Shown: positions 20,612 through 63,602 of the stretch, one piece after another
Layout of the letters: each line of letters starts with the position of its first letter
Position numbering within the stretch: position 1 is the stretch's first letter
Assembly: GCA_016214885.1 (NCBI GenBank)
Contig: JACRMP010000005.1
Location: forward strand, 70,725-134,724
Length of the DNA stretch: 64,000 bases
Direction of reading: 5' to 3'
From: Candidatus Gottesmanbacteria bacterium
GTDB lineage: Bacteria; Patescibacteriota; Microgenomatia; UBA10105; UBA927
Notes under the pieces: model-generated
Seen by the model: the letters and a program-made list of their open reading frames with translations, nothing else
Database searches by the model: none
Told to the model about the DNA's origin: nothing
Program-made: the position numbers and the translations under genes

Positions 20612-22090
20612 TTAAAAATAACCTGATTCAATAAGTGTTTTTCTATCCTGGTCATTGATCCAGGATGGCAACGGGTCTGATCGGGGTGCGATGTCAGGAA
20701 ATCCGCGCTGGAGCTCCCTATAAACACGTAATAATGCCCCCGTTATGACTTTATGCTCATCAGCGATGTTTATTTTTTCCGCTGGGTCACGCTTCAGATC
20801 ATATAGCATGACGGAAGTCTTCCCTTCCGCAATTCCACGGATAAACTTAAATCGGTCGGTTATCACAGCAACTGCACCGTCACTCACGTGCTCTGCAAGC
20901 ACGGCAATATGCCTTACCGGAGAAAACACGCTTATCCCGGAAATAGGAAACGTCGTGCGATTATCCAACACATCATGAATGGTCGGAAAAATATCCACAA
21001 GAGAAACTAGCCGTCCTGATCTCCCTGATCTGCTCTTGGGAACATATACAACAAACGGCACGTGAAGCACCTCATTATAAAGTGTGTTTCCGTGTGAATA
21101 TGAATCATGCTCAAAAAACTCATCCCCCTGGTCGCCCACAATAATAATTGTGGTGTTTTCCATAAAATTTTTCTCGGTGAGGTATGTAAAAAATTTTGTC
21201 AGCTCCTGATCAAGAATATACAGCTGGGCTGAATATAACGCATGTATATATTCCGATTTCTCCTGTTTACCTAAATGGTCAAATTGTTTCCAGTACTCTT
21301 CATTTATGATTGTGTATACATCGTTGTACTCTTCATATGTCTTGTTGCTCATTCCCTGGAATTCGGCTAATTTATCACAGGTATTTCTTGTGTCATTAGG
21401 GTGCCCGTCTCTTAATTCGGGCCGCAGGCTCATGAGCTTGGCATACGTCAGTGCACACAAATCGTCATACGTCATCCGCTTTCGGTCGGTACCCTTATAA
21501 AAACGGGAAAGTGTTTCCTCATCCGGCATATACGGTTCATGCGCCATATAGGTATGCATAAAGAAAAAAGATTTTTTCTTCAGTCTGTCAGGATCAAGCG
21601 CCAATGCATCCAATGTGGCTATCCACGAACCAGGATCATCCGCTTCATAAATTGAAGTAAATCCCCTTTCCATCCCGCGGTCGAGCGGCAAATGCGGATC
21701 TTTTGTAACCCCCAAATAATACGTTTGGTAACCCAAGCCCTTTAATGATTCTGCCAGGGTAGGTATTCCCTCAGGTAAAATACTTGAATACGGGAGATTC
21801 ATGGTGTGTGTCTCCGGGTACAGAGAGGTCATCATAGAAAAGTGACTATCGTGAGTACGCGATGCAGTCGCGTAGGCATTGGTATAGACATGTGATTTTT
21901 TCGCGAATGCACATAAGCCCGGCATGGTGTTCTTGCTATACCCAAAACAGGGAAGGCTTTTGGCGCGCACCTGATCGAGTGAAATCAGCATCACGTTACA
22001 GTCGCGACACATAGGAACTGATTGTCGAAAAGACACAGCAACCGCGGAAATTAGGAATAAAAGCACGATGGTTAGTGCATATCGCAACAT
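20612..22090 (-). CDS. Sulfatase-like hydrolase/transferase of the alkaline-phosphatase superfamily, membrane anchored, Thr nucleophile
   Basis: An N-terminal TM helix is followed by NVMLISLDQVRAKSLPCFGY...NAYATASRTHDSHFSMMTSLYP. The position equivalent to the sulfatase C-x-P-x-R motif reads T-H-D-S-H, so this is a Thr-type enzyme as in phospho-transferases such as LtaS/EptA rather than a true sulfatase. Confidence 0.6.
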   Translation of the reverse strand: MLRYALTIVLLFLISAVAVSFRQSVPMCRDCNVMLISLDQVRAKSLPCFGYSKNTMPGLCAFAKKSHVYTNAYATASRTHDSHFSMMTSLYPETHTMNLPYSSILPEGIPTLAESLKGLGYQTYYLGVTKDPHLPLDRGMERGFTSIYEADDPGSWIATLDALALDPDRLKKKSFFFMHTYMAHEPYMPDEETLSRFYKGTDRKRMTYDDLCALTYAKLMSLRPELRDGHPNDTRNTCDKLAEFQGMSNKTYEEYNDVYTIINEEYWKQFDHLGKQEKSEYIHALYSAQLYILDQELTKFFTYLTEKNFMENTTIIIVGDQGDEFFEHDSYSHGNTLYNEVLHVPFVVYVPKSRSGRSGRLVSLVDIFPTIHDVLDNRTTFPISGISVFSPVRHIAVLAEHVSDGAVAVITDRFKFIRGIAEGKTSVMLYDLKRDPAEKINIADEHKVITGALLRVYRELQRGFPDIAPRSDPLPSWINDQDRKTLIESGYF

Positions 22091-25560: not shown

Positions 25561-25588
25561 AAAAACCCCGCTTTCGCGGGGCTTTTGG
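25561..25588. terminator. Bidirectional rho-independent terminator between convergent typA and pilin genes
   Basis: AAAAACCCCGC-TTTC-GCGGGGCTTTTGG: a GC stem with A-run and T-run flanks. Confidence 0.6.
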
Positions 25589-25609: not shown

Positions 25610-26074
25610 TTACCTGGTTACCGTGATAACCGCTGCGTTATCCGTTGTCGGCGCACTTACCGTTATACGGTTCTGTGCATCTCGGGATATCTGGTATCCC
25701 GTATTACCCCATGCACCTGCATTTGCGGTACAGTCAGTAATATTTGCCGTATTCAGCGACGGATCCGTCGGCAATGCCGGCAGGTAGTTCGTCACCAGCT
25801 GCCCGCACAAATTCGGGAAGTTGGTCGCATTAAACAGCGTTGCTGTTCCTGCGGTCAAACCGCTTACTTCTGCAGGCAACTGACCCTGATTTTCAGCTAC
25901 ATACTGATGAATGGCATTTAATACCTGCAGTACATCGCTGCGGCGTTTGGTGTTATTTGCCTGTCCGAATTGCCGGGCAGGATTAATGGCAATAAGCGTA
26001 ATGGCTAATAATATCGCGAGGATACCAATGACCACCAACAGCTCAATGAGCGTAAAACCTTTTTTATTTTTCAT
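25610..26074 (-). CDS. Type IV pilin / pseudopilin (prepilin-type N-terminal cleavage-methylation domain)
   Basis: MKNKKGFTLIELLVVIGILAILLAITLIAI is the class III signal, G-FTLIE. Start reassigned to that Met. GGGAGGGG RBS upstream. Confidence 0.8.
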   Translation of the reverse strand: MKNKKGFTLIELLVVIGILAILLAITLIAINPARQFGQANNTKRRSDVLQVLNAIHQYVAENQGQLPAEVSGLTAGTATLFNATNFPNLCGQLVTNYLPALPTDPSLNTANITDCTANAGAWGNTGYQISRDAQNRITVSAPTTDNAAVITVTR

Positions 26075-26166
26075 AGGCAGGTCCCCTCCCAAGGACATGA
26101 AACTTATGTACATTCAGCATAGGGGAAAATTCGTATCTTTGTCAAGAACAGTGAAGGCGGTGATCG

Positions 26167-26826
26167 TTATCCGCGGATAAAAAACCAATACATAGTAAGC
26201 GCGTAGAGCAGCGCCGCGCCACCAAATACTATCCACCCCCACGGCGTCTTCTTAGGAGCTTTCCCTTTTGGCGCGGTTACCGCCACAACCGCTCCTTGTT
26301 TCTCCGTCACAAACGGAAACGCGCTGAGGCGTAATGCGGATGATCCGTCAAAAACACGCTTAACCGTTGCGTTATCCACTTCCCCTTTCGTCAATCCCAA
26401 CTGTACCAGCGCTGACCAGGGAACAACGAGTGCAACCGGATGCTGTTGGGAAGCCAGCGAACGGGAAATTGATTCGTAATAATCCTGATTGGTGGCAATA
26501 AGGTATGACTGATCATGTGCAGTTATACATGCCGTGACAACATGGGCAAATGGGGTTGTGCTGATAAGCTTCGCTTCCGCCTCTTCTCGTTTCCCTTCTT
26601 CGAAGGGCTGTATAAAACACAATTCGTCACTCAACACCACGATAGTGGATACAACAGCATTGGGCTGAACCGGTACGAGTTTTTTGACGGAAAGCAACAG
26701 TTCTTCGTCATTCACTACTTCCATATCCGACACTGCGGATTTGGCTATACTCCCCCCGACGGGGTTTGGCCGATCACTGTAATACACATATATTGTTTCC
26801 GGTCGTACTATTGCCAGGGCAGACAT
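26167..26826 (-). CDS. Hypothetical protein with C-terminal TM anchor, inside the pilin operon
   Basis: 219 aa with the only hydrophobic helix at the extreme C-terminus (WGWIVFGGAALLYALTMYWFFI). Embedded between pilin genes. Confidence 0.35.
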   Translation of the reverse strand: MSALAIVRPETIYVYYSDRPNPVGGSIAKSAVSDMEVVNDEELLLSVKKLVPVQPNAVVSTIVVLSDELCFIQPFEEGKREEAEAKLISTTPFAHVVTACITAHDQSYLIATNQDYYESISRSLASQQHPVALVVPWSALVQLGLTKGEVDNATVKRVFDGSSALRLSAFPFVTEKQGAVVAVTAPKGKAPKKTPWGWIVFGGAALLYALTMYWFFIRG

Positions 26827-26831
26827 ATTGA

Positions 26832-27230
26832 TTAATCCTCAGGGAGTTCCCGCCAAGAATCGGTTATTAGCTCTCCACCATTATAATGCACTTTCACCTC
26901 AACCTGCTTTTGAACAGTGCCATACGATCCTGTCGACACTATCGTAATACCTGAGCTGGTGCTCACGGTTATCAGCGCGGACTGATCACTGGTTATTGTG
27001 ATTAATTCACCGGCATAAGCAGGATTACGCACCAACCGCAGCAATGCATTTTCGGCGCCGCTTTCCGCTGCTGAGTAGGCAAGCGAGCCAGCCTCAAACA
27101 TCGTTGTTGATTGGGTGTTGCCGATCAGGGCATAAATAGCCCCGGTAGTCACCAGAATACCGATCACCATGACATACAGCATGGCGATGAGCACTTGACC
27201 GGAACTATGCTGTGATCTGTTTGTAAACAT
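26832..27230 (-). CDS. PilX-like minor pilin
   Basis: The hydrophobic N-terminus SGQVLIAMLYVMVIGILVTTGAIYAL resembles the PilX N-terminal domain. Located in the pilin operon. Confidence 0.45.
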   Translation of the reverse strand: MFTNRSQHSSGQVLIAMLYVMVIGILVTTGAIYALIGNTQSTTMFEAGSLAYSAAESGAENALLRLVRNPAYAGELITITSDQSALITVSTSSGITIVSTGSYGTVQKQVEVKVHYNGGELITDSWRELPED

Positions 27231-27231
27231 A

Positions 27232-27738
27232 TTATCGCTGACTAACTGTTGTCTGCATATTGAGCGTTTGCTGACCAGCTTCTACATCAGAATTGCCCGT
27301 CAAACCCAACTGAATGGACAGTGTGTCGGCGGCATCTTCAAGCACTGCTGAATTTCCGATCCGGGTCAATAAGAACTGTGTTATCACTGACCGGTTGCTA
27401 TTCAGTTGTGTGCTGCTACCCGCGGAGGAAACCGTTATGCTCTGCCCGTCCCAGACATATTGATACGTTTGCGGCACGCCCGCTTCATTGATAACAAGCA
27501 TCATGGAATCACTTGCCACTCCCAGTGCAGGGGAAAGAATAATATCGGATCTTTTAATGTCATAATGCAGCCGCGACATGATAAACCGACCATCCTGCTG
27601 AACCCCTGATGTATTGGCTGATTCGACCCTGAGACCCACGATTGCCAGAAATACCTGGCTCATGAGCCCGATAAGCACGCTGGTTAATCCCATGTAAAGA
27701 AGTAGCTCGATAAGTGAAAATCCGTTTTGTTGTCTCAT
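27232..27738 (-). CDS. Pseudopilin (prepilin-type N-terminal domain)
   Basis: MRQQNGFSLIELLLYMGLTSVLIGL. Overlaps neighbouring genes by 4 nt (ATGA). Confidence 0.7.
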   Translation of the reverse strand: MRQQNGFSLIELLLYMGLTSVLIGLMSQVFLAIVGLRVESANTSGVQQDGRFIMSRLHYDIKRSDIILSPALGVASDSMMLVINEAGVPQTYQYVWDGQSITVSSAGSSTQLNSNRSVITQFLLTRIGNSAVLEDAADTLSIQLGLTGNSDVEAGQQTLNMQTTVSQR

Positions 27739-29741
27739 GGTGATAAGGCAATGCTGACATCATTAAGAATTGGCGTCAGTGTGGCATCCCCGGTGGTCAA
27801 TTGCGCCCGATAACGGAAACACCGCGCGGGATTCTCATAACCTGTCCCGTCACCGGAAAATGGCAAAGCCCCAGATATACTCACGCCGTCTGAAGAAACA
27901 TACGATGTACCGGCTGTCCCGTCTGGTCCGACATATATATAGGAGGCCCCAGCACAACTGCCGCCAACCGCGTCCGCAGCCGCAAACTGCAAAGTCACGC
28001 TCGACTGTGCTGAGGGCACGGAAATCGACGCCTCAATGCGGTTAAACGCTACCTCGGAGCTTCCGGTCGCGATAAGTGTCGCATCAAATATTTGCGACTC
28101 AAAAACGCCCGTCAGAAAATAGTCTCTGCCGTTTGCCCCCGGTCCTCCTTCAATAATTTTAAGCTCACTCGATGCATCACCGGTGATGATGTATGAATAT
28201 GCCCGACCGCTTGACGCAAGCACCGTATCAATACCGTTTACCCCCGAATTTATCTCTATCCCGCCGCACCGCGGCAGCGGGTTTGCTGTTTCACTAGTTA
28301 TATCGACTACCTGATATTCCTCGCCACCCAAACCCACAATAATGGCCCGCGGCCCGGATACCACAACCAAACCTTTTGGATTCATGCTGCCCGTATCATA
28401 AGAACCCAGCACTTGTTTATAACCGGCAGCACCCGATTCAGTGTTCACGATAAAAAATTCACGCTGTGCACTTGACTGCTCAGTAGCGACATACGCCCTC
28501 GTACCGCTGGCGTTTATGTATATAGCTTTCCCACCGCTCGCAGACAAACCTATTTGGTCGACAATACGCAGGTCGGAAGGATTACTCACATCAACAATCA
28601 CCACCTGTGCATTCGTGGCGCTCGTTGCCACAAATGCCCTGCCTCCTGAAACTACAATGCTTTTTCCTGTCCCGGGAAGGGTTATCCCGTCAGCATCAAG
28701 CACGGAACGCGACCCTGTTTTTGAGGAAAGATCAAACGAATACATTTTCGTCCCACCGACCATATACCCAACTGATCCTGCGGTTACCACTCCCTCAGCA
28801 TTCCCGTTTCCTGGAGCATTAAAGTACCCGGCTTCGGCAAACTTACCGGATCCGTCAACGGCACCCAATGCAATAATCTCAACCTCTTTCGTGTTGGTAT
28901 CGGTCGCAAGATAGGCATATTCGGCTTCGGTAAATACATCATTCGTTTTATATCCGTCAAAAGTCCCGGATGTCGTAGCAATAGGATTGGTCGGAAATTC
29001 GGGATCAGTAATCAGGACGTTTGCATACGATACTCCGCTTGCATTATCCCCGGTTCCTGCGGCAATTGCCCCTTGAATTGCGCTGATTGCGTTGGCTACC
29101 CCGCTTTTCGGTAAATCTACCGCTGTAATGGTAAGCGACGGCTGGCACCAATCCCCGTAGCCTCCCGTTGAACCCAATACCACTTCTCCGCCGGCTAAAT
29201 TTATTACCCTCGTGTGCTGCGTCGCATCTCCGTTAAGAAAATTCTGTTCGGTCGTATCTACATGGATAATATTATTGTGACGGGTAAGTATGACCACTGA
29301 CGAAATTGACGTCGGAAGCGGGGTTGTCCATGATACGCGGATTGTTGCACGCCGTGTCGATGGATCAGTAATCCCGCCTGAGCTTACGATATTTCCTGAA
29401 ATATCCCGTTGCACAGGGGAAAATTCAATAACACGGGTAAACCGGTCAATTGTTTCGGTTCCATTGGCAAGAGTCCACCGCGCATTAACCACTGCAGGAT
29501 GGTAGACCGTGTTATTTGCATACAAGGCAAACTGGCTCCACCCCGTCTCGCGGATACTCCGTAGTGCCTCCTGCGCCTCGACAAGCAGTGTTGTTGCACG
29601 GGTTCGCTCAATCTGCTGCGCTTTCCCCTCCCGTGATACAAAGAACATGGTAAACAGCGCAGGAAAAAAAATAAGGGCAAATCCCATGGCGAGCAGCAGT
29701 TCAATGATCGTTTGTCCTCTTTGCAGCTTCATAGTATTCAC
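27735..29741 (-). CDS. Giant pilin-like protein: prepilin-type N-terminus plus LVIVD-repeat beta-propeller (putative pilus tip adhesin)
   Basis: N-terminus LQRGQTIIELLLAMGFALIFF. The C-terminal region has repeated AQVVIVDVSNPSDLRIV and LVVVSGPRAIIVGLGGEEYQVVDITSE units, typical of LVIVD beta-propeller blades. Confidence 0.6.
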   Translation of the reverse strand: MNTMKLQRGQTIIELLLAMGFALIFFPALFTMFFVSREGKAQQIERTRATTLLVEAQEALRSIRETGWSQFALYANNTVYHPAVVNARWTLANGTETIDRFTRVIEFSPVQRDISGNIVSSGGITDPSTRRATIRVSWTTPLPTSISSVVILTRHNNIIHVDTTEQNFLNGDATQHTRVINLAGGEVVLGSTGGYGDWCQPSLTITAVDLPKSGVANAISAIQGAIAAGTGDNASGVSYANVLITDPEFPTNPIATTSGTFDGYKTNDVFTEAEYAYLATDTNTKEVEIIALGAVDGSGKFAEAGYFNAPGNGNAEGVVTAGSVGYMVGGTKMYSFDLSSKTGSRSVLDADGITLPGTGKSIVVSGGRAFVATSATNAQVVIVDVSNPSDLRIVDQIGLSASGGKAIYINASGTRAYVATEQSSAQREFFIVNTESGAAGYKQVLGSYDTGSMNPKGLVVVSGPRAIIVGLGGEEYQVVDITSETANPLPRCGGIEINSGVNGIDTVLASSGRAYSYIITGDASSELKIIEGGPGANGRDYFLTGVFESQIFDATLIATGSSEVAFNRIEASISVPSAQSSVTLQFAAADAVGGSCAGASYIYVGPDGTAGTSYVSSDGVSISGALPFSGDGTGYENPARCFRYRAQLTTGDATLTPILNDVSIALSP

Positions 29742-30250
29742 TCGCGGACTACCGATAACGCACCCGCTTCGTTTATCCGTATGGTCACCCTACTGCCCGT
29801 TTCCGTATCGGACAACTCAACATAATCTGCTCCTGTGATAAATCCTCTCATTTTTCCGCTGCTCCTGGCATACGTAATCGCCTGATCTGGCACGGCAATA
29901 ACAGTAAATCGCATGGTAGGATCAAGCAGCACCTCCTGATTCTGACTGTTTCCCATGTCATACACAGCCCCCGGATACAAAATATACCGGTCGGTTTCAA
30001 ACCGAACGGAATAATCCACTACCGATCCTGACGGAGAAACCAACCCGTTTATCGCCCGCGCCTGTTGCGTGTTAAGGTCGCGCATGACGCTGCTGGATAC
30101 CTGATCAAGAGTGGCACTTCTTATCCCGCCGAACAGCGACTGTGTAGACAACATAAACATTATGGCCATAATGGTTCCCACGATAATCACCTCAACCAGG
30201 GTAAATCCATCGGTATAACGACGTCTTGCATGGCTATCTGTTCGCCGCAT
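29738..30250 (-). CDS. Pseudopilin (GspH/FimT-like, prepilin-type N-terminal domain)
   Basis: RRYTDGFTLVEVIIVGTIMAIMFML. Confidence 0.7.
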   Translation of the reverse strand: MRRTDSHARRRYTDGFTLVEVIIVGTIMAIMFMLSTQSLFGGIRSATLDQVSSSVMRDLNTQQARAINGLVSPSGSVVDYSVRFETDRYILYPGAVYDMGNSQNQEVLLDPTMRFTVIAVPDQAITYARSSGKMRGFITGADYVELSDTETGSRVTIRINEAGALSVVRE

Positions 30251-30258
30251 ATCTATAT

Positions 30259-32481
30259 CTATAGTACAGGACTGTGAATAATTGCCAATCCGTCATACGA
30301 ATGTTTTTTCTGCATAGCTTCCCGTTTTTGCGCAGTATATACAGGCAGTGAAAAACTGAAAATCGCCCCCATCCCCTTACCGTCTGAATGCCCTTCTATA
30401 ACGCCTCCATGGAGATCAATAATGGATTTGCATATAAACAGTCCGAGACCGGTACTCTGGGTAGCTGCGGAGGTGGTCTGGGAAGAGGTCTCCAGCGTGC
30501 CAAATTTTGTAAACAATTTATCCCGCATTACAGGGTCAAATCCCTTCCCTGTATCGGTAACAGAAATGGTGATGTACTCGTTATCAGACCTGACGGCTAT
30601 AGTGATACTCCCATTCCACGGAGTAAACTTAATGGCATTTCCAATAAGATTGATAAGCACTTCTTTGATTTTATCCGTATCTGCAATGACATCAGGGACG
30701 GAATCCTGCGGCATCCTGACATTAAGATGTAGACCCTGCTCCTCAATCCTGGGACTTACTTCGGCGACAACATCCCGCAGTATGGTGCCAATATCCGCCC
30801 GGGAAAACTGGACCGCAAGCCGTCCGGATTCTATACGTGAAATATTTAACATGTCATTTACCAGCCGTATAAGACGGTCTGCCGAGCTGAATGCGCGGTC
30901 CAGATAGTACTTCTGCTTCTCAGTGACTTCCCCTCCCTTACCGGAAAGTGCCATCCATAAGTATGAACGGATGCTCGTTAACGGCGTTCGCAATTCATGT
31001 GAAGCAAGTGACACGAATTCATCTTTGAGCTTATCCAGTTGTCGCAGTTTTTCATTTGCCCCCCGTAGATCCTGAGTCGCCCGGGAGACCTCATCTTCAA
31101 GCGTCATATTAAACCGTCGTATTTCTTCGTAGGAAAGTGAATTCTCTATCGCGACCCCGACTTCAGGGGATATAATTTCCAGAACATGCACATCTTCATC
31201 GGAATATCTCTCACCTGAAAGTTTTTCTCCGGTACACAAAAGTCCTATGACTTTATCCGATGTCTCCAGGGGCAGCAACACCGACGCATCCAAAGATTCA
31301 AACACCATCTGAATAAGCGGATCCTGCTCATCATCGCGGTGGTGAACTCCGCTTGTTGCTGAGGTATGCACAGCAACAGACTCATGCAGCTCCGGGGTAA
31401 GATCATACCCTTCGGAGATAATGGTGAATATCCGTTGCCCGTGGATTAATACAATGCAGGACTTTGTTATCCGCAGCTCCTTATTTAGCTGTTGCAAAAA
31501 CTGGTGAGTAAGATCTTCCAATCTCAAAGACCGGGCCATTATTTTTGCCAGCCTATACAGTACCTGGGCTGTATCATATTTATTTTTGAAAAAAACTGCG
31601 TCAGTCGTTTGTTCAATCACCCGCTTAACACTCGGAAACGTCAGTAACATTATTAGCGCTGCAATGGTAGAAAGAATAATAAAACGAGGATCGATATACG
31701 GTGATACCAGGAGTGACGCCATCGATGAAAACACCAACGCATAGATAAGACCGAAAAGAGAGATAAGTACCGCATAGGATACCGCCCGGGCAATAACAAG
31801 CCGTATATCCAAAAATTTATGCCGGATAATTGCATACGCAGTGGCAGCCACAAACGGCAGTGTATAAAGCGGACTGAATGAAACAAACGATGACTCCTGG
31901 AACAGAACAACCAGCACAAAATTAAAAAATATAATAAGCGTGAACATGACCACAACACCAAGGCCAATTGCCTGAAGCTGGGACCGTAGTATTCCTTTTG
32001 AAAATCTAAGACGCCGGATAAGCGTCCACACGCCGGCAAGTACGGAACCCACTGCAACCAGAACAAACAATGGCATCGCCGGTCCCGGCGTAGGAGAAGG
32101 CGTCCCATCCACAAAAATTATCGACGGAAAAAGAAAAGGACTCACACAAAGTCCCATGGTAATAATTCCCAAAACCATTAGCGCGCCAAGGCGTGATGCG
32201 GGCATACTGATACGTGTTGACGGCAGGGTGTATATCAGTAAAAAAAACAATATGGCCTGCGGTACGGCAAGCGCCATAACTATTCTTGTCCAATACAATA
32301 CAGTGAGCAAATCCGTATACTGAAGCGTCAGGTAGTTAGCCGCCGACCAGAGACTGATATCAAGGGTCAGCAAAAAGAAGAGAAGCGGGGTAGCGCTCCG
32401 CCGGTTTCTAAGATACACAAAGAGTCCTAATAGGATATTGGCGGCAATTCCGGTGATAAGTATGGGCAGGTTTATATTCAT
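30259..32481 (-). CDS. Sensor histidine kinase with multi-TM N-terminal sensor, GAF-like segment, HisKA and HATPase_c
   Basis: About 8 TM helices, then ASHELRTPLTSIRSY (H-box), NLIGNAIKFT (N-box) and GTGLGLFICKSIIDLHGG (G-boxes). Only 8 nt separate it from the downstream pseudopilin gene. Confidence 0.8.
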   Translation of the reverse strand: MNINLPILITGIAANILLGLFVYLRNRRSATPLLFFLLTLDISLWSAANYLTLQYTDLLTVLYWTRIVMALAVPQAILFFLLIYTLPSTRISMPASRLGALMVLGIITMGLCVSPFLFPSIIFVDGTPSPTPGPAMPLFVLVAVGSVLAGVWTLIRRLRFSKGILRSQLQAIGLGVVVMFTLIIFFNFVLVVLFQESSFVSFSPLYTLPFVAATAYAIIRHKFLDIRLVIARAVSYAVLISLFGLIYALVFSSMASLLVSPYIDPRFIILSTIAALIMLLTFPSVKRVIEQTTDAVFFKNKYDTAQVLYRLAKIMARSLRLEDLTHQFLQQLNKELRITKSCIVLIHGQRIFTIISEGYDLTPELHESVAVHTSATSGVHHRDDEQDPLIQMVFESLDASVLLPLETSDKVIGLLCTGEKLSGERYSDEDVHVLEIISPEVGVAIENSLSYEEIRRFNMTLEDEVSRATQDLRGANEKLRQLDKLKDEFVSLASHELRTPLTSIRSYLWMALSGKGGEVTEKQKYYLDRAFSSADRLIRLVNDMLNISRIESGRLAVQFSRADIGTILRDVVAEVSPRIEEQGLHLNVRMPQDSVPDVIADTDKIKEVLINLIGNAIKFTPWNGSITIAVRSDNEYITISVTDTGKGFDPVMRDKLFTKFGTLETSSQTTSAATQSTGLGLFICKSIIDLHGGVIEGHSDGKGMGAIFSFSLPVYTAQKREAMQKKHSYDGLAIIHSPVL

Positions 32482-32489
32482 GACGGTCG

Positions 32490-33650
32490 TTACAGTCCTA
32501 GTTTACGGATAAATTCTTCACGCACGGCACTGTGCCGGGAATACTCGCTCGCTATGACAGCAACAGGAGAAAATATCGCTTCGGGGGATATTACAACTTT
32601 TCCCTGAACAACAGGCTTCCCTAACACTATCAGCCGCACCACATAACTTACAACAGATCCCGCCATGGAAGCAGCGTTTCCTAATTGCGGCCAGGTATAT
32701 AATGTTTTTCCCAATTCCAAAAGCGACGTCATCATGCGGGTAGCAATATTTTCAGGCCGCACCCACCTGCTTATTATCCGGGCGGCGACCGGTCGTGGCG
32801 TGTCGGGGCGTATTGCAAGAAGCTCCGCTTCAGGAATATCCCCGTGCATAAGCGGCCGCTTATGATCAAGATCAAACCGCTCTATATCTACTACGACTCC
32901 GTCACCGTTGTCTGCGGCCATAACTACTGGAATTCCGTGCTTCCGGGCGAGTGTCCGCAGACGGATTTTAAGATACAGATCATCCATCTCATCCACCACT
33001 ATATCAAGAGGCTCGGGTTCCAGAAGAAATTCTTTTATGTTTTTTTCCGTAAGACCGGAATCAAAAACCGTAAGATCAGTAAAAGGATTCACCAATAAAA
33101 CTTCGCGTGCGGCGACAGTTGTTTTTGATACCCCCAACAAATCAAAACCTGCCCGGATACGGTTCATATTTGAACCCGACAGCACATCGGCGTCCGCTAT
33201 GCGCAGATATTTCGCGCCTCCGGTATGAACAATATTAGATACAACCGCGTTCCCGACACTGAGCCCGGCAACACCCACACGGGCACGGTAATACCGGCGC
33301 TGCTCGGACAGCGTGATAAGGTTCCTGTTCCTTGCAGTGCGGAGCTCCGTATGAAGCGCTTCCGGCAAAAAATGGATAAGCCGCTTACCCCAGGGATACC
33401 AGGCCCAAACACCGAACATGTCTTTGGATTTTCCCCGGTAAATACTTTTGATAAATTTTTCGAGTAGCACAGCTGATACCCCTTCGCGGATCACACTGGG
33501 ATTGCGTATTTTGTATAACTCTTCAAGCTGGGAATACAGCTCATCTACCAACTGCACGTCCGCGCGGCGTTTTAATGCTGCTAATCTCACGGCATCCCGG
33601 GACTTGCTTGGATTAAAAAGCTCACAATGGTTATCGCGGGAGTTACTCAT
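32490..33650 (-). CDS. ThiF/MoeB/E1-like adenylyltransferase family protein with ~100-aa N-terminal extension
   Basis: RARVGVAGLSVGNAVVSNIVHTGGAKYLRIADADVLSGSNMNRI is the nucleotide-binding GxGxxG loop with downstream D...N.R. The N-terminal extension is reminiscent of the peptide-binding E1-like enzymes such as MccB, or TOMM-associated types. Confidence 0.5.
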   Translation of the reverse strand: MSNSRDNHCELFNPSKSRDAVRLAALKRRADVQLVDELYSQLEELYKIRNPSVIREGVSAVLLEKFIKSIYRGKSKDMFGVWAWYPWGKRLIHFLPEALHTELRTARNRNLITLSEQRRYYRARVGVAGLSVGNAVVSNIVHTGGAKYLRIADADVLSGSNMNRIRAGFDLLGVSKTTVAAREVLLVNPFTDLTVFDSGLTEKNIKEFLLEPEPLDIVVDEMDDLYLKIRLRTLARKHGIPVVMAADNGDGVVVDIERFDLDHKRPLMHGDIPEAELLAIRPDTPRPVAARIISRWVRPENIATRMMTSLLELGKTLYTWPQLGNAASMAGSVVSYVVRLIVLGKPVVQGKVVISPEAIFSPVAVIASEYSRHSAVREEFIRKLGL

Positions 33651-33683
33651 AAATCAGCCTCAATTTCATTGTAACAACTCCCC

Positions 33684-35201
33684 TTATGTTTTCCTAACCC
33701 ATTTGTGCTTGCCTGAGGAAGAGAAATGCGGGGGACTCCCATATGGCCAGCAAAACACATTTGGCGTCATACGGCGCTCCCCCATGCTTTTTAAATTATT
33801 GGCAAACTCTGAATTGTGTTCTGTTAGCTCGCTGATAATTTGCGCTTGTATCTCACGCATTAGCAATGCTGAGCTTTTACTGTTTTTCTGCAGCTCCACA
33901 TGCACATTCCATGATTGGTTCATTTGCTGATCATAATATGCCTCTGCAGTATGCTTACCGGTTAATACTTTCCTGAAACGGACGGCTTCCAGCGCCCGCC
34001 GTATTTCCTGCGGATATATATTTGCTCCGAATATTTTTACGGTAAAATCCCGGCGTTCAAACAAATATACAAACGGAATATTCCAGACCGTCGCTGCAAT
34101 GCCCGCCTTCTTAATTTCCGCATCCAGATTAACGCCGTATGCAGCAAAAACTTTCTGCATCTCTTTGAAGGTAAGAATTCCTCCCGTATCCATAAGATCG
34201 TACCGCACCAACGGAATACCGCTTCGTGCCGTACATAAAAGATTTCCGGAATCTGCCTCAAAATAAAACAGTTCAGGAATATATTGGGCAAGCGTAGGCT
34301 GATTATGCTTTTGTCCGAATAGAGCTTCATTTAATACCGGGTTTTTGACCGCCAGCCTGCGGACAAGAATCGCAAGCGGCGTTTCATGCGCCATTGTCCC
34401 CAAATCGACACTGCCATAATGATTTAATGTATCAGTATATTCATGGAGGAGGCCTGCATGTTTTATGACGTAAGTACGGAACGCTTCAGAAAACCCTTCC
34501 GCGGAAAAAATAAATTTTACATGGCTTTTTTTCCACTCCATCCCCCTGCGCTCACCTTCATCTATAAGATCTTTTATCATCGGGGGGTACCCTCCGATAA
34601 TGATCTGATCATAAAGAGGAGCAAATTTCTGCACTGCTTTAAGTATTTCGTCGCTGGAGGTTCCCGGCGTAATAATGCTTAATGGGTACTTGCCGCGCTC
34701 TGCAACTATACGGATAGCTGCATAGCTAAATACTCCTCCGATCCACACCCCCATACCCCAACCGACAATAAACAGCGTTGATTTCGTATGAATTGAAAAA
34801 TTTGACCGCAAATACATTTCAGCAACGGCGGCATACTGCAAATCCTGCTCCTGGGATCGCGGAAAATAAAACGGGTCACCTGTTGATCCGCTGGTTGCAG
34901 ACACGATACGCGGCATACCGGTTAAGCTTCCCATCCAACAAAGATCGGTGAGCGAATATTTTCTTAAATACGAGTCTTTGCCGATAATTGGCGCGGACAA
35001 AAAATCCCGCATCCCGGGCTTTTTCGGCAACCGTATATGAAAATCTGCAAGATGTTTTTTATATGCGGGAACGTTCCTTGCCATGTCTGCAAGCAGAGCG
35101 CAGGCCATACGCTCCCCCCTCTTTATCCAATACCCCTCAGATTTCGTACCCAACAGTGCCGCCCACCGTACCGGATCGTTTATCAGCGCAATCGTTTTCA
35201 T
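33684..35201 (-). CDS. Adenylate-forming enzyme of the PaaK / CapK / coenzyme-F390-synthetase-like family (ANL superfamily)
   Basis: ARNVPAYKKHLADFHI...LPIIGKDSYLR then SATSGSTGDPFYFPRS, the (S/T)SG(S/T)TG.P AMP-binding loop, then WGMGVWIGG. Confidence 0.5.
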   Translation of the reverse strand: MKTIALINDPVRWAALLGTKSEGYWIKRGERMACALLADMARNVPAYKKHLADFHIRLPKKPGMRDFLSAPIIGKDSYLRKYSLTDLCWMGSLTGMPRIVSATSGSTGDPFYFPRSQEQDLQYAAVAEMYLRSNFSIHTKSTLFIVGWGMGVWIGGVFSYAAIRIVAERGKYPLSIITPGTSSDEILKAVQKFAPLYDQIIIGGYPPMIKDLIDEGERRGMEWKKSHVKFIFSAEGFSEAFRTYVIKHAGLLHEYTDTLNHYGSVDLGTMAHETPLAILVRRLAVKNPVLNEALFGQKHNQPTLAQYIPELFYFEADSGNLLCTARSGIPLVRYDLMDTGGILTFKEMQKVFAAYGVNLDAEIKKAGIAATVWNIPFVYLFERRDFTVKIFGANIYPQEIRRALEAVRFRKVLTGKHTAEAYYDQQMNQSWNVHVELQKNSKSSALLMREIQAQIISELTEHNSEFANNLKSMGERRMTPNVFCWPYGSPPHFSSSGKHKWVRKT

Positions 35202-35270
35202 AATAATTTCCCCTCATCGCCTCCACAGCCTTGTTTGAGTTTATCCCATGCGTGGGGTAAGATACAAAAG

Positions 35271-35675
35271 ATGGCAAAACGCATACTCATCGTCGATGAC
35301 GATTCATTTATCCGGGAGCTCTATGAAGAAGTGCTCAGAGATGCCGGATTTGATATCACCACCGCAGAAAACGGTGAATCAGGACTTGCACACCTTTTGG
35401 AGGGAGGATTTGATGCAGTGCTCCTGGATGTGATGATGCCGAAATTAGACGGGTTAGGAGTACTCACCAAGCTCAAAGAGTCCCATCCTAAAAAACCAAA
35501 CGGACCCATTATTCTGCTTACCAACTTAGATCATGACCCGATTCTTGATAAAGCGATTGAACTTGGAGCAGTGTCCCACGTGCTTAAAGCAGACATCCTG
35601 CCGCCGGCTCTCGTCACCTTGGTTAACAAAACGCTAAGCCACTCCACTAATGGAACTCCCCAACCTGGCCAATAA
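35271..35675 (+). CDS. Single-domain (CheY-like) response regulator receiver protein
   Basis: KRILIVDDDSFIRELYEEVL...DAVLLDVMMPKLDG...ILLTNL has the conserved phospho-acceptor Asp and the Thr and Lys positions, with no output domain. Start set at MAKRIL. Convergent with pilC; the 3' ends overlap. Confidence 0.8.
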   Translation: MAKRILIVDDDSFIRELYEEVLRDAGFDITTAENGESGLAHLLEGGFDAVLLDVMMPKLDGLGVLTKLKESHPKKPNGPIILLTNLDHDPILDKAIELGAVSHVLKADILPPALVTLVNKTLSHSTNGTPQPGQ

Positions 35676-36699
35676 GATTATAAATAGGCGCAATGATGGC
35701 CATCATCATACCACCGACAACCACACCTACTAATACAAGAATAACAGGCTCAAGCAGCGTCATAAGATATTGAAGCGTGGTGGTGACCTGATAATCAAAA
35801 TACTCTGATAAATCCTCCATGGATTTATCCAAAGAGCCGCTCCGCTCCCCGACTTCTATGATTTTTATCATCAGTGACGGAATGGATTTTTGCCCCCGCA
35901 AGCCATCCGTTAACCGCTTGCCGCCGCCGACATATTCGCGTGCTTTTGCTATAGCCTCACGTATTTCCCGTTTCATAGCAACAGCTTGTGTTAATTCCAG
36001 CGCGCTATAGAGAGGAATGGCAGAAACCAGCAGCAGATACATGCTCCGCGAAAACCGTGTTAAATCTATCTGCCGGGCGATAGAAGACACATATGGCAGA
36101 TTAAGCAATATATTCACAACAAATGCGCGCTTCTGCTTGAAAAGGAAAATAATAAGAAGAATGAATCCGAAAACAACAAGCAGTGTCGGGACGGTGTAAT
36201 TTAATACCAAATTCGATAATCCTATAAGTATCCTGGTCGGCAGAGGCAGATCTACCCTAAGCCTAAGGAATACTTCCGAAATCTTCGGAATGACAAAGGT
36301 AACTAAAAGCAGCAACACCCCAAAAAATACGACGAGTATAACCGCCGGATACGTTAAAGCGGAACGGATCTTGTCACCGAATTCCATATCTTTTTTGATT
36401 GTATTTTTTACATCCTTAAGCACCACGTCTATCGTTCCTGATTCCTCCGAAGCCTTAATGATGGCGACCGTAACACTGTCAAACACTTTGGGATATTTTG
36501 ATAATGCGGTATGCAGCGGCTTTCCCTGGGTAATATCCGCTTCGATTCCTGTAAGCACTATTTTCAGATTTCCTACAGAATCCTCCAAAAGCGAGTTAAC
36601 CGCCTCTGCAAGGGTAAGCCCTGCATTTACCATCGTAGATAAATTACTGAGGAGCCCCAATTTTTCAGAATTCTGCAGTGTTATATTTTCTGATTTCAT
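35647..36699 (-). CDS. pilC: Type II secretion system F / PilC-family inner-membrane platform protein
   Basis: GspF-like repeat motifs, LSSLVNAGLTLAEAVNSLL and EVGERSGSLDKSMEDLSEYF, with three TM helices. Overlaps pilB by 4 nt. Confidence 0.8.
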   Translation of the reverse strand: MKSENITLQNSEKLGLLSNLSTMVNAGLTLAEAVNSLLEDSVGNLKIVLTGIEADITQGKPLHTALSKYPKVFDSVTVAIIKASEESGTIDVVLKDVKNTIKKDMEFGDKIRSALTYPAVILVVFFGVLLLLVTFVIPKISEVFLRLRVDLPLPTRILIGLSNLVLNYTVPTLLVVFGFILLIIFLFKQKRAFVVNILLNLPYVSSIARQIDLTRFSRSMYLLLVSAIPLYSALELTQAVAMKREIREAIAKAREYVGGGKRLTDGLRGQKSIPSLMIKIIEVGERSGSLDKSMEDLSEYFDYQVTTTLQYLMTLLEPVILVLVGVVVGGMMMAIIAPIYNLIGQVGEFH

Positions 36700-38372
36700 A
36701 GTGTTTCCACCCGCGTTACCCTGAGTATTTCCTCTATCGTCGTCACCCCTTTAGACACCTTAATCAGCCCGTCATCCAGCATGGTAAGCATCCCTTCGGT
36801 AATTGCCTGCTGGGCAATCACATCGCTGTCTTTCCGTTCGGTAATGAGTTTACGGATTTCTTTTGTTATCTCTAAGACCTCGAAAATACCTACCCGCCCC
36901 GCATAACCCGTAAACCGGCAGTTTTTACACCCCTGCCCTTTATAGACTCTGATTTCTTTGTTTACTCCCGTAGGGATGTAGTGCTTGCTTATGATGGTTG
37001 CCGGAAGATTTTTCTGTAACTCTGCTTCAGTAATAGTTGTTGATACGCGGCAATAATCACAAATTTTCCGTACCAGACGCTGCGCGACAATAAGACTCAC
37101 ACTGGATGCGACAAGGAACGGCTCTACATGCATGTCAGTAAGGCGTGGAAGCGAGGTGGCAGCATCATTTGTATGAAGCGTCGAGACGACTAAATGACCG
37201 GTAAGAGCGGCGTTGATGGCAATACCGGCGGTTTCGGGATCACGGATTTCTCCGACAAATATAATATTGGGATCCTGACGCAAAATAGAACGCAGCCCAT
37301 TGGCAAATGTTAAATTGGTTTTTGTATTCACCTGAATCTGATTAACCCCCTTAATCCTGTATTCCACAGGATCTTCAATGGTCGTAATGTTTTTATCCCG
37401 GACGTTTAAGATTTTCAGCATGGCGTAAATTGAAGTCGTCTTGCCGCTCCCGGTAGGACCAGTCGACAGAATCATGCCGTATGACCTGTGGAGTGCGGCG
37501 TTTATTTTATTTATCGCTGCTTCTTCCATGCCAAGGTCAGCAAAACTAAACAGCTTAAAATGGGAAACCAATAACCGCATGACCACCTTTTCCCCCTCCA
37601 CCATGGGAATAATGGAAATACGGATATCCACTGACTGCTCGTCATGTTTGATACGCACTTTACCGTCCTGGGGAGCCGAATGTTCATCCGTACGGAGGTT
37701 TGCCAGTACTTTGATACGGCTTACCACCTGGCTGTGCATTGTTTTAGAGAAGTTCAGCACGTCATGAAGAATTCCGTCGATCCGGAACCTCACTAATGAA
37801 TCTGCCTCCCCCGGCTCAATATGGATATCAGAAGCAGTCTCATCCACCGCGCTATGCAGCAATAAATCGACAATCGTAGAGATCGGCGCTTCATCCTCCC
37901 GTTTAAAACGCTTCATTAAATCGGCAAATACCGACTGCAGCTCGCGCCTATGGAGCTGTAATGCATTATGAATGTCGTGCTCGGTTGCATAATGGACAAT
38001 TATTTTCTGACGGATTTTTTTCTCAAGGGCGGCAAACACTGGAGTATCAGAAGGATTTGCTGCCGCAACTTTTAATCCTCCCTCGTCCCGTGCAAACGGG
38101 ATGATTTTATGCACTTTGGCGAACTTATCCGGAATTACCCGATATACTGATTCCGGAATAGTGACATCAGCCAAATTAACAAACGGCACGCCCAAATGTT
38201 CTGCGATAAGCTTTCCCAGATTGGTGTCGGTAATGACATTTTTTTCAAGCAGCGCATCAACGAGAGGGACCCCTGCACTCTTGGCAAACTCAACGACTGC
38301 TTTAAGCTCAGCTTCAGTCGCCACATGCGACTGGATCATCAGCTTCTGGAGGATTTCATCAGAAATATTCAT
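36696..38372 (-). CDS. pilB: Type IV pilus assembly ATPase PilB / GspE family
   Basis: N-terminal GspII_E domain. Walker A LSTGPTGSGKTTS, Asp box, Walker B, His box (TLHTNDA) and the tetracysteine CDYC...CKNC. Confidence 0.9.
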   Translation of the reverse strand: MNISDEILQKLMIQSHVATEAELKAVVEFAKSAGVPLVDALLEKNVITDTNLGKLIAEHLGVPFVNLADVTIPESVYRVIPDKFAKVHKIIPFARDEGGLKVAAANPSDTPVFAALEKKIRQKIIVHYATEHDIHNALQLHRRELQSVFADLMKRFKREDEAPISTIVDLLLHSAVDETASDIHIEPGEADSLVRFRIDGILHDVLNFSKTMHSQVVSRIKVLANLRTDEHSAPQDGKVRIKHDEQSVDIRISIIPMVEGEKVVMRLLVSHFKLFSFADLGMEEAAINKINAALHRSYGMILSTGPTGSGKTTSIYAMLKILNVRDKNITTIEDPVEYRIKGVNQIQVNTKTNLTFANGLRSILRQDPNIIFVGEIRDPETAGIAINAALTGHLVVSTLHTNDAATSLPRLTDMHVEPFLVASSVSLIVAQRLVRKICDYCRVSTTITEAELQKNLPATIISKHYIPTGVNKEIRVYKGQGCKNCRFTGYAGRVGIFEVLEITKEIRKLITERKDSDVIAQQAITEGMLTMLDDGLIKVSKGVTTIEEILRVTRVETL

Positions 38373-44672: not shown

Positions 44673-45940
44673 TACACCGTCTCAAGAAGCTTGCCTGCAA
44701 CCCACCCTGAGCTCCACGCCCATGAAAGATTAAAGCCGCCGACCTGTCCGTCTACATTAAGTATTTCACCTGCAAAAAACAATCGTTTGGCTTTTTTGGA
44801 CGCTAATGAACCGGCGTCAACCTCGTCCGTAGCTACTCCCCCTGCAGTAAATTCCCCTTCGTTCCACCCGCGCGTATCTGTTACTTCCGATGTAAATTCG
44901 GTCAGCACACCGAACAACTTATCGTATTCCTGCGGATTCAACTCTCCCGACAGACGTTCTTTGGGAAGCCCTGCAACCGCGCATATTGCCCCTGCGGCTT
45001 TCTGCGTAAACAACCCCCACAAGCTATGGGCTACCGGAAGCGTTGCGTGTACTGAGAGCCGTTTATCCAAAATCGCCTTCACTTCTCCTGCCGTTTTATT
45101 AGGAAAAAAGGATAGGCGTATCTTGGCGTCCCGCTTATTTTCCCTGTTAATGCGGACAGAAAAATCATGACTTATGTCAAAAATGGCAGGCCCTGAAAAC
45201 CCGTACTGGGTAAACATAACGTCGCCGACAGCCGTTGTACCGTTCACCCCACCGATAATACTGGTTGCTTCCATCACCATTTTTTCCCCCTGCATAAAAT
45301 GAGATAACTGATTTTTGGAAACTATCGGAACTGCGGTAACCACGGGAGTCACAATGGTGTGTCCTGTGCCGGCTGCAAGATCATATCCCGATCCGTCTGC
45401 TCCCAGGGAGGGATATGTTTTACCGCCCGCTGTCATAATGATATAACGCCCCGTATAGCTCCCATCGTTTGTCTCCACGGTCCAATAATCTGCTGACAGC
45501 ACCAACGCCGTAATCGCAACATTGTAAAATATTTCTATATGGTGTTCTCCTAAAGTGTCCACCAGCATGTCCCGCACGGTTTTTGCATGGTCAATTTCCG
45601 GAAAAATCTTCCCCCTGCTCGTTTTCTTTTCCTCATAGGTGGGTACACCGAGCTCATCAAAAAATGCCATAATATCGCGGTATCCGAACTGGGAAAATAC
45701 GGAGGTGATAAAATGCGCGTCACCGTGAAAATACGCTACGGGGTTCTCCTCTAAATGCACATTGGTAAGATTTCCGCGCCCTGCCCCCGAGGTGAGGAAT
45801 TTCCTGCCCAGCTCGTGTGTCTTGTCCAGGATCGCCACACTATAATCCGGGTGGTGATGTCTCACAGAAAGCGCGGCCATCATGCCGGCGGGACCCCCAC
45901 CGATAATAATCACGTCATATTGCACCGAAAAAGTAGTCAT
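44672..45940 (-). CDS. HI0933 / BaiN-like NAD(P)/FAD-dependent oxidoreductase (aminoacetone-oxidase family flavoprotein)
   Basis: YDVIIIGGGPAGMMAA is the FAD dinucleotide fold. Also has the characteristic GRYIIMTAGGKTYP and C-terminal FAGEILNVDGQVGGFNLSWAWSSG. Confidence 0.75.
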   Translation of the reverse strand: MTTFSVQYDVIIIGGGPAGMMAALSVRHHHPDYSVAILDKTHELGRKFLTSGAGRGNLTNVHLEENPVAYFHGDAHFITSVFSQFGYRDIMAFFDELGVPTYEEKKTSRGKIFPEIDHAKTVRDMLVDTLGEHHIEIFYNVAITALVLSADYWTVETNDGSYTGRYIIMTAGGKTYPSLGADGSGYDLAAGTGHTIVTPVVTAVPIVSKNQLSHFMQGEKMVMEATSIIGGVNGTTAVGDVMFTQYGFSGPAIFDISHDFSVRINRENKRDAKIRLSFFPNKTAGEVKAILDKRLSVHATLPVAHSLWGLFTQKAAGAICAVAGLPKERLSGELNPQEYDKLFGVLTEFTSEVTDTRGWNEGEFTAGGVATDEVDAGSLASKKAKRLFFAGEILNVDGQVGGFNLSWAWSSGWVAGKLLETV

Positions 45941-46120
45941 ATAGCCATCATTAGCTCGTTAATACCCGTATCGTACACACTGGGACACCCGGCGGGCAAT
46001 GCGTAAAATACATAGCCCGAGAAAATTGCAAAGCGGCAAACCTGCATTGACTTGCCCACACTCCATACCCATACTAAGAACAGGCACACACAGCACCTGG
46101 TTGTTTCTTTGTGCCGATGT

Positions 46121-61969: not shown

Positions 61970-61970
61970 A

Positions 61971-63589: not shown

Positions 63590-63602
63590 ATTCCAGTAAG
63601 GA

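Follow-up and report, generated by a model that had tools for sequence, protein, structure and literature searches.

Why should a type IV pilus operon of Candidatus Gottesmanbacteria be split by genes for a predicted adenylate-forming ligase, a ThiF-family enzyme, a sensor histidine kinase, and a stand-alone receiver? The question is raised by positions 25,610 to 38,372 of the window, the 64,000-nucleotide stretch of contig JACRMP010000005.1 analyzed here, in which these four genes lie between the pilB-pilC pair and the pilin genes. A preliminary description of this DNA had noted the split and offered two explanations, a system that modifies pilins or pili and the synthesis of a signal or small molecule under two-component control. 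Our analysis shows that positions 30251-35646 (5,396 nt) are an accessory cassette inserted in a conserved Microgenomates-type pilus operon, and that this cassette represents one pathway that is independent of pili. The reading we favor, to which we give about an even chance, is that the inserted genes form a module that makes an oxazolone-type small molecule and is wired to its own sensor, a seven-transmembrane (7TM) histidine kinase.

The evidence for insertion comes from a comparison of loci seeded on PilC, in which pilB-pilC with the same six genes directly after it is a widespread contiguous operon. The six encode, in order, a 160-170-aa pilin, an LVIVD protein of ~650 aa, a ~170-aa pilin, a ~135-aa protein, a ~230-aa protein, and the major pilin. 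The unsplit operon is found in outgroups (locus L093, with PilC 59% identical to that of the window, and L094 from Levybacteria, 55%) as well as in close relatives (L096, PilC 85%; L099, 81%; L100/L101, 71%; L104, 70%), and the first minor pilin gene lies directly after pilC in L096, L099, L093, and L094. These operons bear out the claim that the window's pilus locus has been split by four genes. The insertion is present in the close relatives L095 (PilC 91%) and L097 (87%) and in L009-L011, L089, L090, and L103, and PilB is 70-86% identical in relatives of the clade, insert present or absent. The pilus-embedded copies group together as one clade when the ligases are placed in a neighbor-joining tree; across this clade the 8-nt gap, or an overlap, between the kinase gene and the first minor pilin gene is retained, and within it the embedded arrangement is kept down to 57% ligase identity. 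When the junction DNA was aligned with that of unsplit relatives, only the 3' end of pilC was conserved and there were no repeats and no scars. The link to the pilus is positional and specific to this clade, and the pilus does not require the cassette.

One genome per GTDB species was scanned, which gave 153 confirmed loci; the best 80 were retained, and ORFs were called in these and searched with the window proteins and with the neighbors from the first contexts. The 153 matching genomes span Microgenomates, Parcubacteria-type groups, Saccharimonadia, and Doudnabacteria; all of the named lineages are Patescibacteria, and we take the many 'Gammaproteobacteria' or 'bacterium' labels as placeholders. 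In the well-flanked set, the 44 loci with at least 6 kb upstream and at least 7 kb downstream of the ligase gene, both a ThiF gene and a HisKA_7TM kinase gene are near the ligase gene without exception (44/44 for each). A nitroreductase-like flavin oxidase is present at 35, a receiver at 30, an ELFV-type dehydrogenase at 28, and an alpha/beta hydrolase at nine, while PilB lies within 10 kb at four and PilC is nearby at six. The slot beside the ligase is filled, depending on lineage, by three non-homologous amino-acid-deaminating enzymes. These are the ScyB-like ELFV dehydrogenase, which scores 240-270 bits on a tryptophan dehydrogenase model, a divergent class I/II aminotransferase, which adjoins the ligase at 20 of the 80 loci, where there is no dehydrogenase, and an aromatic ammonia-lyase (HAL/PAL family) in the pilus-embedded loci L092 and L102. 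All three turn an amino acid into an acid without the alpha-amino group. The full cassette hence consists of a deaminating enzyme, a PaaK-like ligase, a TrzS/OxzB-like ThiF, an Acg-type flavin oxidase, sometimes an alpha/beta hydrolase, a 7TM kinase, and a single-domain receiver. Gene order is shuffled among lineages while the set remains linked; the median ligase-to-ThiF gap is -13 nt, and there are predicted ELFV-ligase-ThiF (P0426, 1,242 aa), ELFV-ligase, ThiF-ligase, and ligase-ThiF fusions (P0382, P0438, and P0361), in which a gene-calling or assembly artefact is possible. It is from the linked set and the fusion proteins that we conclude that the cassette is one pathway. A Planctomycetes-labelled copy (L091, GCA_016206485.1; ThiF homologue P0212) on an 8-kb contig has the typical order ligase-ThiF-nitroreductase-7TM kinase, but it may reflect a binning error and is no demonstration of the cassette outside Patescibacteria. 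Full-text literature searches on Patescibacteria or the candidate phyla radiation (CPR) with ThiF, nitroreductase, oxazolone, or HisKA_7TM returned no description of this cassette. Patescibacteria have tiny genomes with few assigned regulatory or secondary-metabolic functions, and a cassette of four to seven genes that occurs in 153 genomes, and whose ligase family forms 830 clusters, is thus a candidate core behavior of the group.

The window holds a reduced cassette of ligase, cyclase, kinase, and receiver. Since L090, which belongs to the same clade, retains the dehydrogenase, the window lineage has lost it. There is no flavin oxidase in the loci of the pilus-embedded clade, and no oxidase adjoins the window copy or those of L045, L048, L078, L083, and L088.

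One indication of what the cassette may do is its ThiF-family enzyme. On the NCBIfam model NF005901 ('Rv1355c family') the window protein scores 301.8 bits, with residues 6-363 matching profile positions 10-342 of 722, and a fused Patescibacteria homologue of 761 aa matches over both halves with 381.5 bits, both short of the equivalog cutoff, which was drawn for the two-domain protein at 476 bits; for this reason we say that the window ThiF probably works like a cyclase of the Rv1355c/TrzS branch and do not treat it as a proven member. The match takes in the N-terminal extension of ~105 residues, and the C-terminal half of the fused homologue scores 229 bits as an Acg-family FMN oxidoreductase (cutoff 199), which is the architecture of TrzS. 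TrzS, which is Rv1355c of Mycobacterium, converts N-acyl tryptophan to N-acyl tryptazolone in an ATP-dependent cyclization that precedes desaturation, so that the saturated ring accumulates with the oxidase disabled, and the characterized members of this branch cyclize N-acyl amino acids (PMC12856293). TyzB/TyzC and OxzB likewise yield oxazolones, with tyrosine or phenylalanine derivatives as substrates (PMC10404671; bioRxiv 10.1101/2020.06.11.147165). The ATP-site residues G129, G133, D153, R164, K176, and D223 are invariant in 27 ThiF homologues, and D223 (in VVDEMDD) aligns with the Asp of TcdA and ThiF and maps by homology to D217 of TrzS from M. smegmatis. The AF2 model of the window protein (pLDDT 91.5) has AclA, ThiF, and MoeB as its best fold matches; the top match, AclA of Tenacibaculum discolor (9egb), was not traced in the literature and we draw no function from it.

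The preliminary description was right to place this protein in a ThiF/E1-like family with an N-terminal extension, while its candidates within that family, MccB-like and TcdA, did not hold, as all other ThiF, MoeB, TcdA, and E1 models give 63 bits or less compared to the 301.8 bits of NF005901. A TcdA identity was rejected (36.7 bits on the NCBIfam TcdA model, cutoff 304), as were MoeB/ThiF and MccB/PaaA identities, by the scores, the missing Cys and CxxC, the context, and the gap sizes. The window protein has a single Cys (C9), which varies among homologues, and no CxxC motif, so it is not a thioester-forming or sulfur-relay E1. In the same vein, the ThiF and MoeB models reach no more than 47 bits where their cutoffs are at least 152, the window gaps leave no room for an ORF encoding a small ubiquitin-like partner, and ThiS/MoaD-like genes are absent from the neighborhood.

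The 505-aa ligase gave no Pfam, NCBIfam, or PDB sequence match, and its assignment comes from structure prediction. The AF2 model, built on 22 homologues (pLDDT 89, pTM 0.86), is matched by Foldseek to PaaK1, PaaK2, and BT_0428 (2y27, 2y4o, and 4r1l) at E values of about 1e-20 to 1e-18, with TM scores of 0.52-0.64 normalized to the query and up to 0.72 normalized to the target. The protein is thus predicted to have a two-domain, PaaK-like ANL fold, in agreement with the PaaK-like ligase that had been proposed for this gene. Key residues are invariant or nearly so in the 22 ligases (TSGSTG 103-108, RYDLxD 333-338, ERxD 382-385, and GK 497-498), and together with YGxVD, a further candidate, we read these by eye as candidate ANL core motifs. 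The family is large: a word-indexed search gave more than 1,358 matches, and those with E<=1e-30 fall into 830 clusters at 50% identity. An ordinary PaaK in a phenylacetate operon, the case raised earlier as one that would undo the proposal, was looked for, and no phenylacetate (paa) catabolic genes were present in the window scans or in any surveyed locus.

The kinase and receiver have the residues of a two-component pair. Specifically, the kinase carries the H-box HELRTP at residue 495 (H495) with HisKA (1.9e-18) and HATPase_c (6.8e-24) domains, and the receiver has DD9-10, the phospho-acceptor D52, and K104. The 7TM kinase is always the last gene of the cassette, and this invariable position, together with a receiver that has no output domain, suggests something beyond ordinary regulation of a pathway. 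Other Patescibacteria loci commonly have a divergent receiver upstream of the cassette. Cassette receivers of other Microgenomates and the receivers at pilus junctions without the cassette (L109, L136) score alike (109-122 bits), and the window receiver may be cassette-borne or native to the pilus locus.

Within the pilus-embedded clade the same slot is occupied by two cassette types, which differ in the ligase, the ThiF, and the sensor part of the kinase but not in the kinase core or the flanks. The second type (L092:11571-15680 and L102:11498-15527) has the ammonia-lyase, a 464-aa ligase, and a 321-aa ThiF that lacks part of the N-terminal extension. Identity between types, compared to that within a type, is 35-39% and 57-65% for the ligase, 31-36% and 57-67% for the ThiF, 33-38% and 62-74% for the 7TM region, and 37-47% and 53-69% for the GAF region of the kinase. 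By contrast, the corresponding values are 58-63% and 62-73% for the kinase core, 59-70% and 63-75% for the receiver, 70-82% and 73-86% for PilB, and 67-80% and 69-91% for PilC. Across 64 species loci, divergence of the 7TM region correlates with that of ThiF (r 0.54; partial r 0.47 given the kinase core), while the kinase core gives an r of only 0.36. The co-variation of the types and the divergence correlation fit a sensor that is matched to the product of the pathway, although they are suggestive only.

Our proposed scheme builds on what the analysis shows, namely the genes and the families they belong to, their insertion, and their linkage in many species; its chemistry, its ligand, and any effect on the pili are hypothetical. 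The ligase would adenylate a carboxylic acid whose source is probably an aromatic amino acid, and couple it to an amino acid, standing in for the N-acyltransferase of the known oxazolone pathways. The ThiF enzyme would adenylate the N-acyl amino acid and cyclize it to a 5(4H)-oxazolone-type product, and the oxidase, where present, would desaturate the ring; with the window copy the ring would remain saturated, barring an oxidase gene elsewhere in the genome. The 7TM kinase would sense this product or a related cue and phosphorylate the receiver. Of the two explanations put forward in the preliminary description it is the second, signal or small-molecule synthesis under two-component control, that fits the linkage of ligase, ThiF, and 7TM kinase at 44/44 loci and the putative TrzS-branch ThiF. 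As the oxazolone-synthetase-like enzymes are invariably linked to a 7TM kinase, with a receiver alongside, they come with a concrete receptor candidate.

A much bolder version, which we think improbable though worth stating, is that this is a widespread self-signaling system of Patescibacteria. The ligase and ThiF, whether or not the oxidase takes part, would turn amino acids into an oxazolone-type autoinducer that is detected by the cognate 7TM kinase, with pherotype-like types. In this Gottesmanbacteria clade the system would be wired to the pilus operon, so that the signal controls how the minor pilins are expressed or how active the pilus is and, through this, attachment to a host or uptake of DNA. 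What bacterial oxazolones do physiologically is unsettled, and signaling has been raised as possible by the authors of the TrzS study (PMC12856293). If self-signaling were true, this radiation would have its first assigned chemistry of cell-cell signaling, and bacterial oxazolones would gain a physiological role for the first time.

Several points weigh against the oxazolone-type module with its own sensor. The formation of an amide by the ligase is assumed, and for all Patescibacteria members the favored chemistry is proposed from gene content. No N-acyltransferase domain was found in the window cassette (Pfam, NCBIfam) or in the gene tables of L001-L005, L090, and L092. The 64-kb window contains no cassette-type oxidase (by tblastn), dehydrogenase, aminotransferase, or hydrolase, and the product may differ from the known unsaturated oxazolones. 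To these are added the scores of the ThiF proteins below the equivalog cutoff. As to the sensor, it could co-vary with the enzymes because all were exchanged as one contiguous recombination block, shared ancestry and rate differences confound the Mantel correlations, and the kinase might respond to an external cue and do no more than regulate the pathway.

This last point leads to the explanation that competes best, which we regard as possible but clearly less probable than a module with a product-sensing kinase, namely that the same enzymes make a protective, antimicrobial, or envelope metabolite or serve in aromatic amino acid salvage, with the kinase and receiver sensing a host or nutrient cue and only regulating the pathway. 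Stress links have been suggested for the known oxazolones, whose roles are likewise not settled (PMC12856293), a terminal kinase gene is where a regulator might be, and enzymes and sensor could have been replaced together in a single recombination block. However, a receiver with no DNA-binding output domain is unusual for a simple pathway regulator, the 7TM region tracks ThiF divergence better than the kinase core does, and pathway regulators are not typically linked as tightly as this one kinase type is to its biosynthetic pair (44/44).

The remaining explanations fare far worse. It is very improbable that the ThiF acts in the manner of MccB or PaaA on a ribosomal precursor peptide (a ribosomally synthesized and post-translationally modified peptide, RiPP) with the ligase as a tailoring enzyme. 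PaaA and MccB are indeed among the fold matches of the ThiF model (Foldseek E about 2e-9 to 6e-8), and the N-terminal extension might be seen as pointing the same way, but that extension aligns to the Rv1355c-family profile from position 10, and the substrate of Rv1355c is a small molecule; moreover, the best PDB sequence relatives are TcdA cyclodehydratases (3.6e-15). A precursor-peptide ORF, suggested earlier as something to look for in the intergenic regions, has no space in gaps of 8, 8, 33, and 69 nt in the window, nor with the negative median ligase-to-ThiF gap elsewhere. Modification of the pilin or pilus, in which a pilin carboxylate would be the target that the E1-like enzyme and the ligase activate and decorate, is if anything slightly less credible. 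It would account for genes embedded in a pilus operon at 8 nt from a minor pilin gene and for the persistence of that arrangement in the clade. Nevertheless, close relatives (PilC 70-85%) have the same pilin genes without the cassette, 40 of the 44 well-flanked loci have no PilB within 10 kb, the ThiF branch works on small N-acyl amino acids (PMC12856293), and the one Cys is non-conserved, with no CxxC. The preliminary description had itself held that these genes, if they occurred in other genomes without pilins or pilB/pilC, would be fortuitously adjacent to the pilus genes, and the survey found them in such settings, with PilB near only 4 of 44 loci. Least credible of all is the chance adjacency of an ordinary phenylacetate-CoA ligase and a ThiF/MoeB sulfur-carrier adenylyltransferase, which is what some source annotations ('phenylacetate-CoA ligase', 'molybdopterin/thiamine biosynthesis adenylyltransferase') would imply but which is contradicted by the context survey, the linkage in 79 of 80 loci, the fusion proteins, the low ThiF/MoeB scores, the absence of paa and ThiS/MoaD-like genes from the neighborhood, and the lack of any PaaK-family NCBIfam match.

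What, then, might an oxazolone-type module with its own sensor have to do with the pilus in this clade? From the gap sizes the kinase is probably co-transcribed with the minor pilins, which would couple expression of the cassette positionally to that of the pilus. A scan for consensus promoters and terminators found sites no more numerous than in shuffled sequence; it was uninformative, and co-transcription is thus argued from the gaps. The junction between pilC and the first minor pilin gene hosts other inserts as well, a receiver alone in L109 (11047-11487) and, in L136 (11063-15397; the same in L137), a convergent receiver, an HbpS-like protein, a weakly methyltransferase-like protein, a 329-aa protein, and a GAF histidine kinase without a 7TM region, and it looks like a recurrent integration site for two-component genes. 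For the study of pili, the point is that this junction repeatedly carries two-component genes, yet the pilus operon is intact without them. In addition, an Hpt-domain gene and a single-domain receiver gene lie directly upstream of pilB in many unsplit Microgenomates pilus operons (L093:7445-8238, L094:7567-8294, L108, L111, L116, L117, L122, L126-L128, L139, and L140), a sign that operons of this type may be under phosphorelay control; the pair is absent from the window clade, which has rpoD upstream of pilB instead. Two-component control may be common for this type of pilus operon, and the cassette kinase and receiver may influence the pilus in this clade. At two of the 80 loci, both in Doudnabacteria (L014:14426-15748 and L025:5480-6796), the gene right after that of the cassette kinase encodes a ComEC competence channel, and with the pilus placement this hints at a loose association with DNA-uptake and pilus genes.

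All twelve genes of the locus were found at the coordinates given in the preliminary description (Table 1), with its gaps of 33 nt (ligase/ThiF), 8 nt (ThiF/kinase), and 8 nt (kinase/first minor pilin) and with the stand-alone receiver convergent with pilC, the two overlapping by 29 nt.

Table 1. Coordinates in the window of the pilus locus and the inserted cassette, in order from pilB to the end of the pilin operon.
Feature	Position	Strand	Evidence and remarks
PilB-type assembly ATPase	36696-38372	-	T2SSE 4.6e-126, MshEN 6.2e-16; flank upstream of the insertion
PilC platform protein, 350 aa	35647-36699	-	T2SSF 1.7e-43, two repeats; stop codon is the left insertion edge
Stand-alone CheY-like receiver, 134 aa	35271-35675	+	Response_reg 2.3e-23; no other domain
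Divergent intergenic region between ligase and receiver start codons, 69 nt	35202-35270		Presumed bidirectional promoter
PaaK-like ANL adenylate-forming ligase (predicted), 505 aa	33684-35201	-	Fold match
ThiF-family enzyme, putative Rv1355c/TrzS (oxazolone synthetase cyclase) branch	32490-33650	-	ThiF 7.4e-15; NF005901 9.6e-90
7TM sensor histidine kinase	30259-32481	-	HisKA_7TM, GAF, HisKA, HATPase_c; last cassette gene
Minor pilin, G↓FTLVE	29738-30250	-	N_methyl 6e-4, GspH/ComGD-like; right insertion edge, first native pilin-operon gene
Pilin-like protein, 668 aa, prepilin-type N-terminus RG↓QTIIE	27735-29741	-	LVIVD 1.2e-5, one repeat
Minor pilin, G↓FSLIE	27232-27738	-	N_methyl 5.1e-6; operon position conserved
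Pilin-like protein, 132 aa, hydrophobic N-terminus, no Glu at position 5	26832-27230	-	From sequence
219-aa protein, C-terminal transmembrane segment	26167-26826	-	Conserved pilin-operon member; no family match (Pfam, NCBIfam)
Major pilin candidate	25610-26113	-	N_methyl 5.3e-10, GspG-like 1.6e-10
GC-rich hairpin CCCCGC-TTTC-GCGGGG, 6 GC pairs	25566-25581		Between the convergent pilin operon and bipA; likely bidirectional terminator

The pilus genes comprise an assembly ATPase, a platform protein, and prepilins with a class III signal (G↓F(T/S)L(I/V)E), as expected of a type IV pilus. The module had been called complete, which holds for the ATPase, platform, and pilins but overstates the case, as no PilT, prepilin peptidase, PilM, or PilN/PilO was found among the scanned ORFs of at least 150 aa in the window; these proteins may be encoded elsewhere in the genome. 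The scan passed over all shorter ORFs and, apart from the locus genes, the ORFs of at least 150 aa at 61295-61990, 61971-62648, and 63146-63763 and the overlapping ones at 28441-28914 and 44691-45170. Similarly, the proposed LVIVD beta-propeller pilin is confirmed as a 668-aa pilin-like protein, with orthologues in the same operon position in L093 and L094 (508 and 456 bits), while its propeller comes down to a single weak repeat match. The 132-aa protein has orthologues in the same two outgroups (L093_137 and L094_135, 85-97 bits), in which those of the 219-aa protein are weak, although strong in close relatives. The true start of the major pilin is probably M14 (26074), which yields the canonical KKG↓FTLIE; gene calls in relatives are 152-154 aa. 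A TTGACA-18-TATGCT site lies near this gene at 26145-26116.

Elsewhere in the window, two sulfatase-family proteins and one arylsulfotransferase-family protein (20612-22090, minus strand; 46052-47731 and 47774-49075, plus strand) look like an unusual sulfur-ester metabolism for a contig from a small-genome member of the Patescibacteria. On the minus strand are a bacterial SET-domain protein (4605-5195; PF00856, 2.8e-17) and two large proteins with spermine/spermidine synthase-like domains (10537-12633 and 13493-14923, the latter with a hydrophobic N-terminal half) that flank a metallophosphoesterase. Two further minus-strand ORFs match only part of a family. One of 172 aa (14945-15463) matches just the C-terminal half of the AI-2E transporter family (positions 166-326 of 327), with no upstream ORF for the N-terminal half, and may be a truncated gene or pseudogene. 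The other, of 329 aa (54435-55424), matches QueC only at residues 241-287 (profile positions 161-209 of 210) and shares 65 nt with the gene called next (55360-56865); it is perhaps a fragment or has a misplaced start.

The closest known systems are the oxazolone synthetases OxzB of Pseudoalteromonas rubra, TyzB/TyzC, and TrzS (Rv1355c) of Mycobacterium (bioRxiv 10.1101/2020.06.11.147165; PMC10404671; PMC12856293). They share with the Patescibacteria cassette a ThiF-like protein, in the cassette a putative ATP-dependent cyclase with its best match in the same NCBIfam family, N-terminal extension included, with the ATP-site Asp conserved, and an Acg-type flavin oxidase (nitroreductase superfamily), which is fused or adjacent in TrzS and OxzB and likewise present in most Patescibacteria cassettes. 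Their pathways start from amino acids, as would that of the cassette. The window copy departs from TrzS and OxzB in having no oxidase and a score under the equivalog cutoff. All of the known oxazolone clusters use an N-acyltransferase (OxzA, TyzA, or TrzA), whereas the Patescibacteria cassette invariably has a PaaK-like ligase instead and, unlike them, usually has an amino-acid dehydrogenase, aminotransferase, or ammonia-lyase attached; its 7TM histidine kinase, always linked, is not reported for the known systems.

The enzymes have other relatives. TcdA (Tcd1), the tRNA ct6A dehydratase, is also an ATP-dependent cyclodehydratase with a carboxylate rather than a ubiquitin-like protein as its substrate, but the window ThiF has extra N- and C-terminal regions and a different genomic context. 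The window ligase appears to share its two-domain ANL fold with PaaK1/PaaK2 and BT_0428, and with the condensing relative ClxA (Foldseek E about 3e-12), and the candidate P-loop and the stretch around the C-terminal catalytic Lys of PaaK-type ligases are conserved in it. It differs from them in its low identity (only 12-20%), its ~70 extra residues, and the lack of a Pfam or NCBIfam match, and from true PaaK in having no phenylacetate catabolic genes nearby.

In its organization the cassette recalls agr and ComQXP, loci of a signal synthase and a cognate sensor kinase that have diversified into specificity types, or pherotypes. In these, as in the two cassette types, the biosynthetic genes and the kinase sensor vary together between types while the kinase core, receiver, and flanks stay conserved. 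In contrast to agr and ComQXP, the signal would be a small heterocycle and not a peptide, and two types have been sampled; secretion and autoinduction would be carried over by analogy only. What appears to be new in the Patescibacteria cassette, judged from its genes, is the ligase in place of the acyltransferase, the attached deaminating enzyme, and the 7TM kinase linked without exception.

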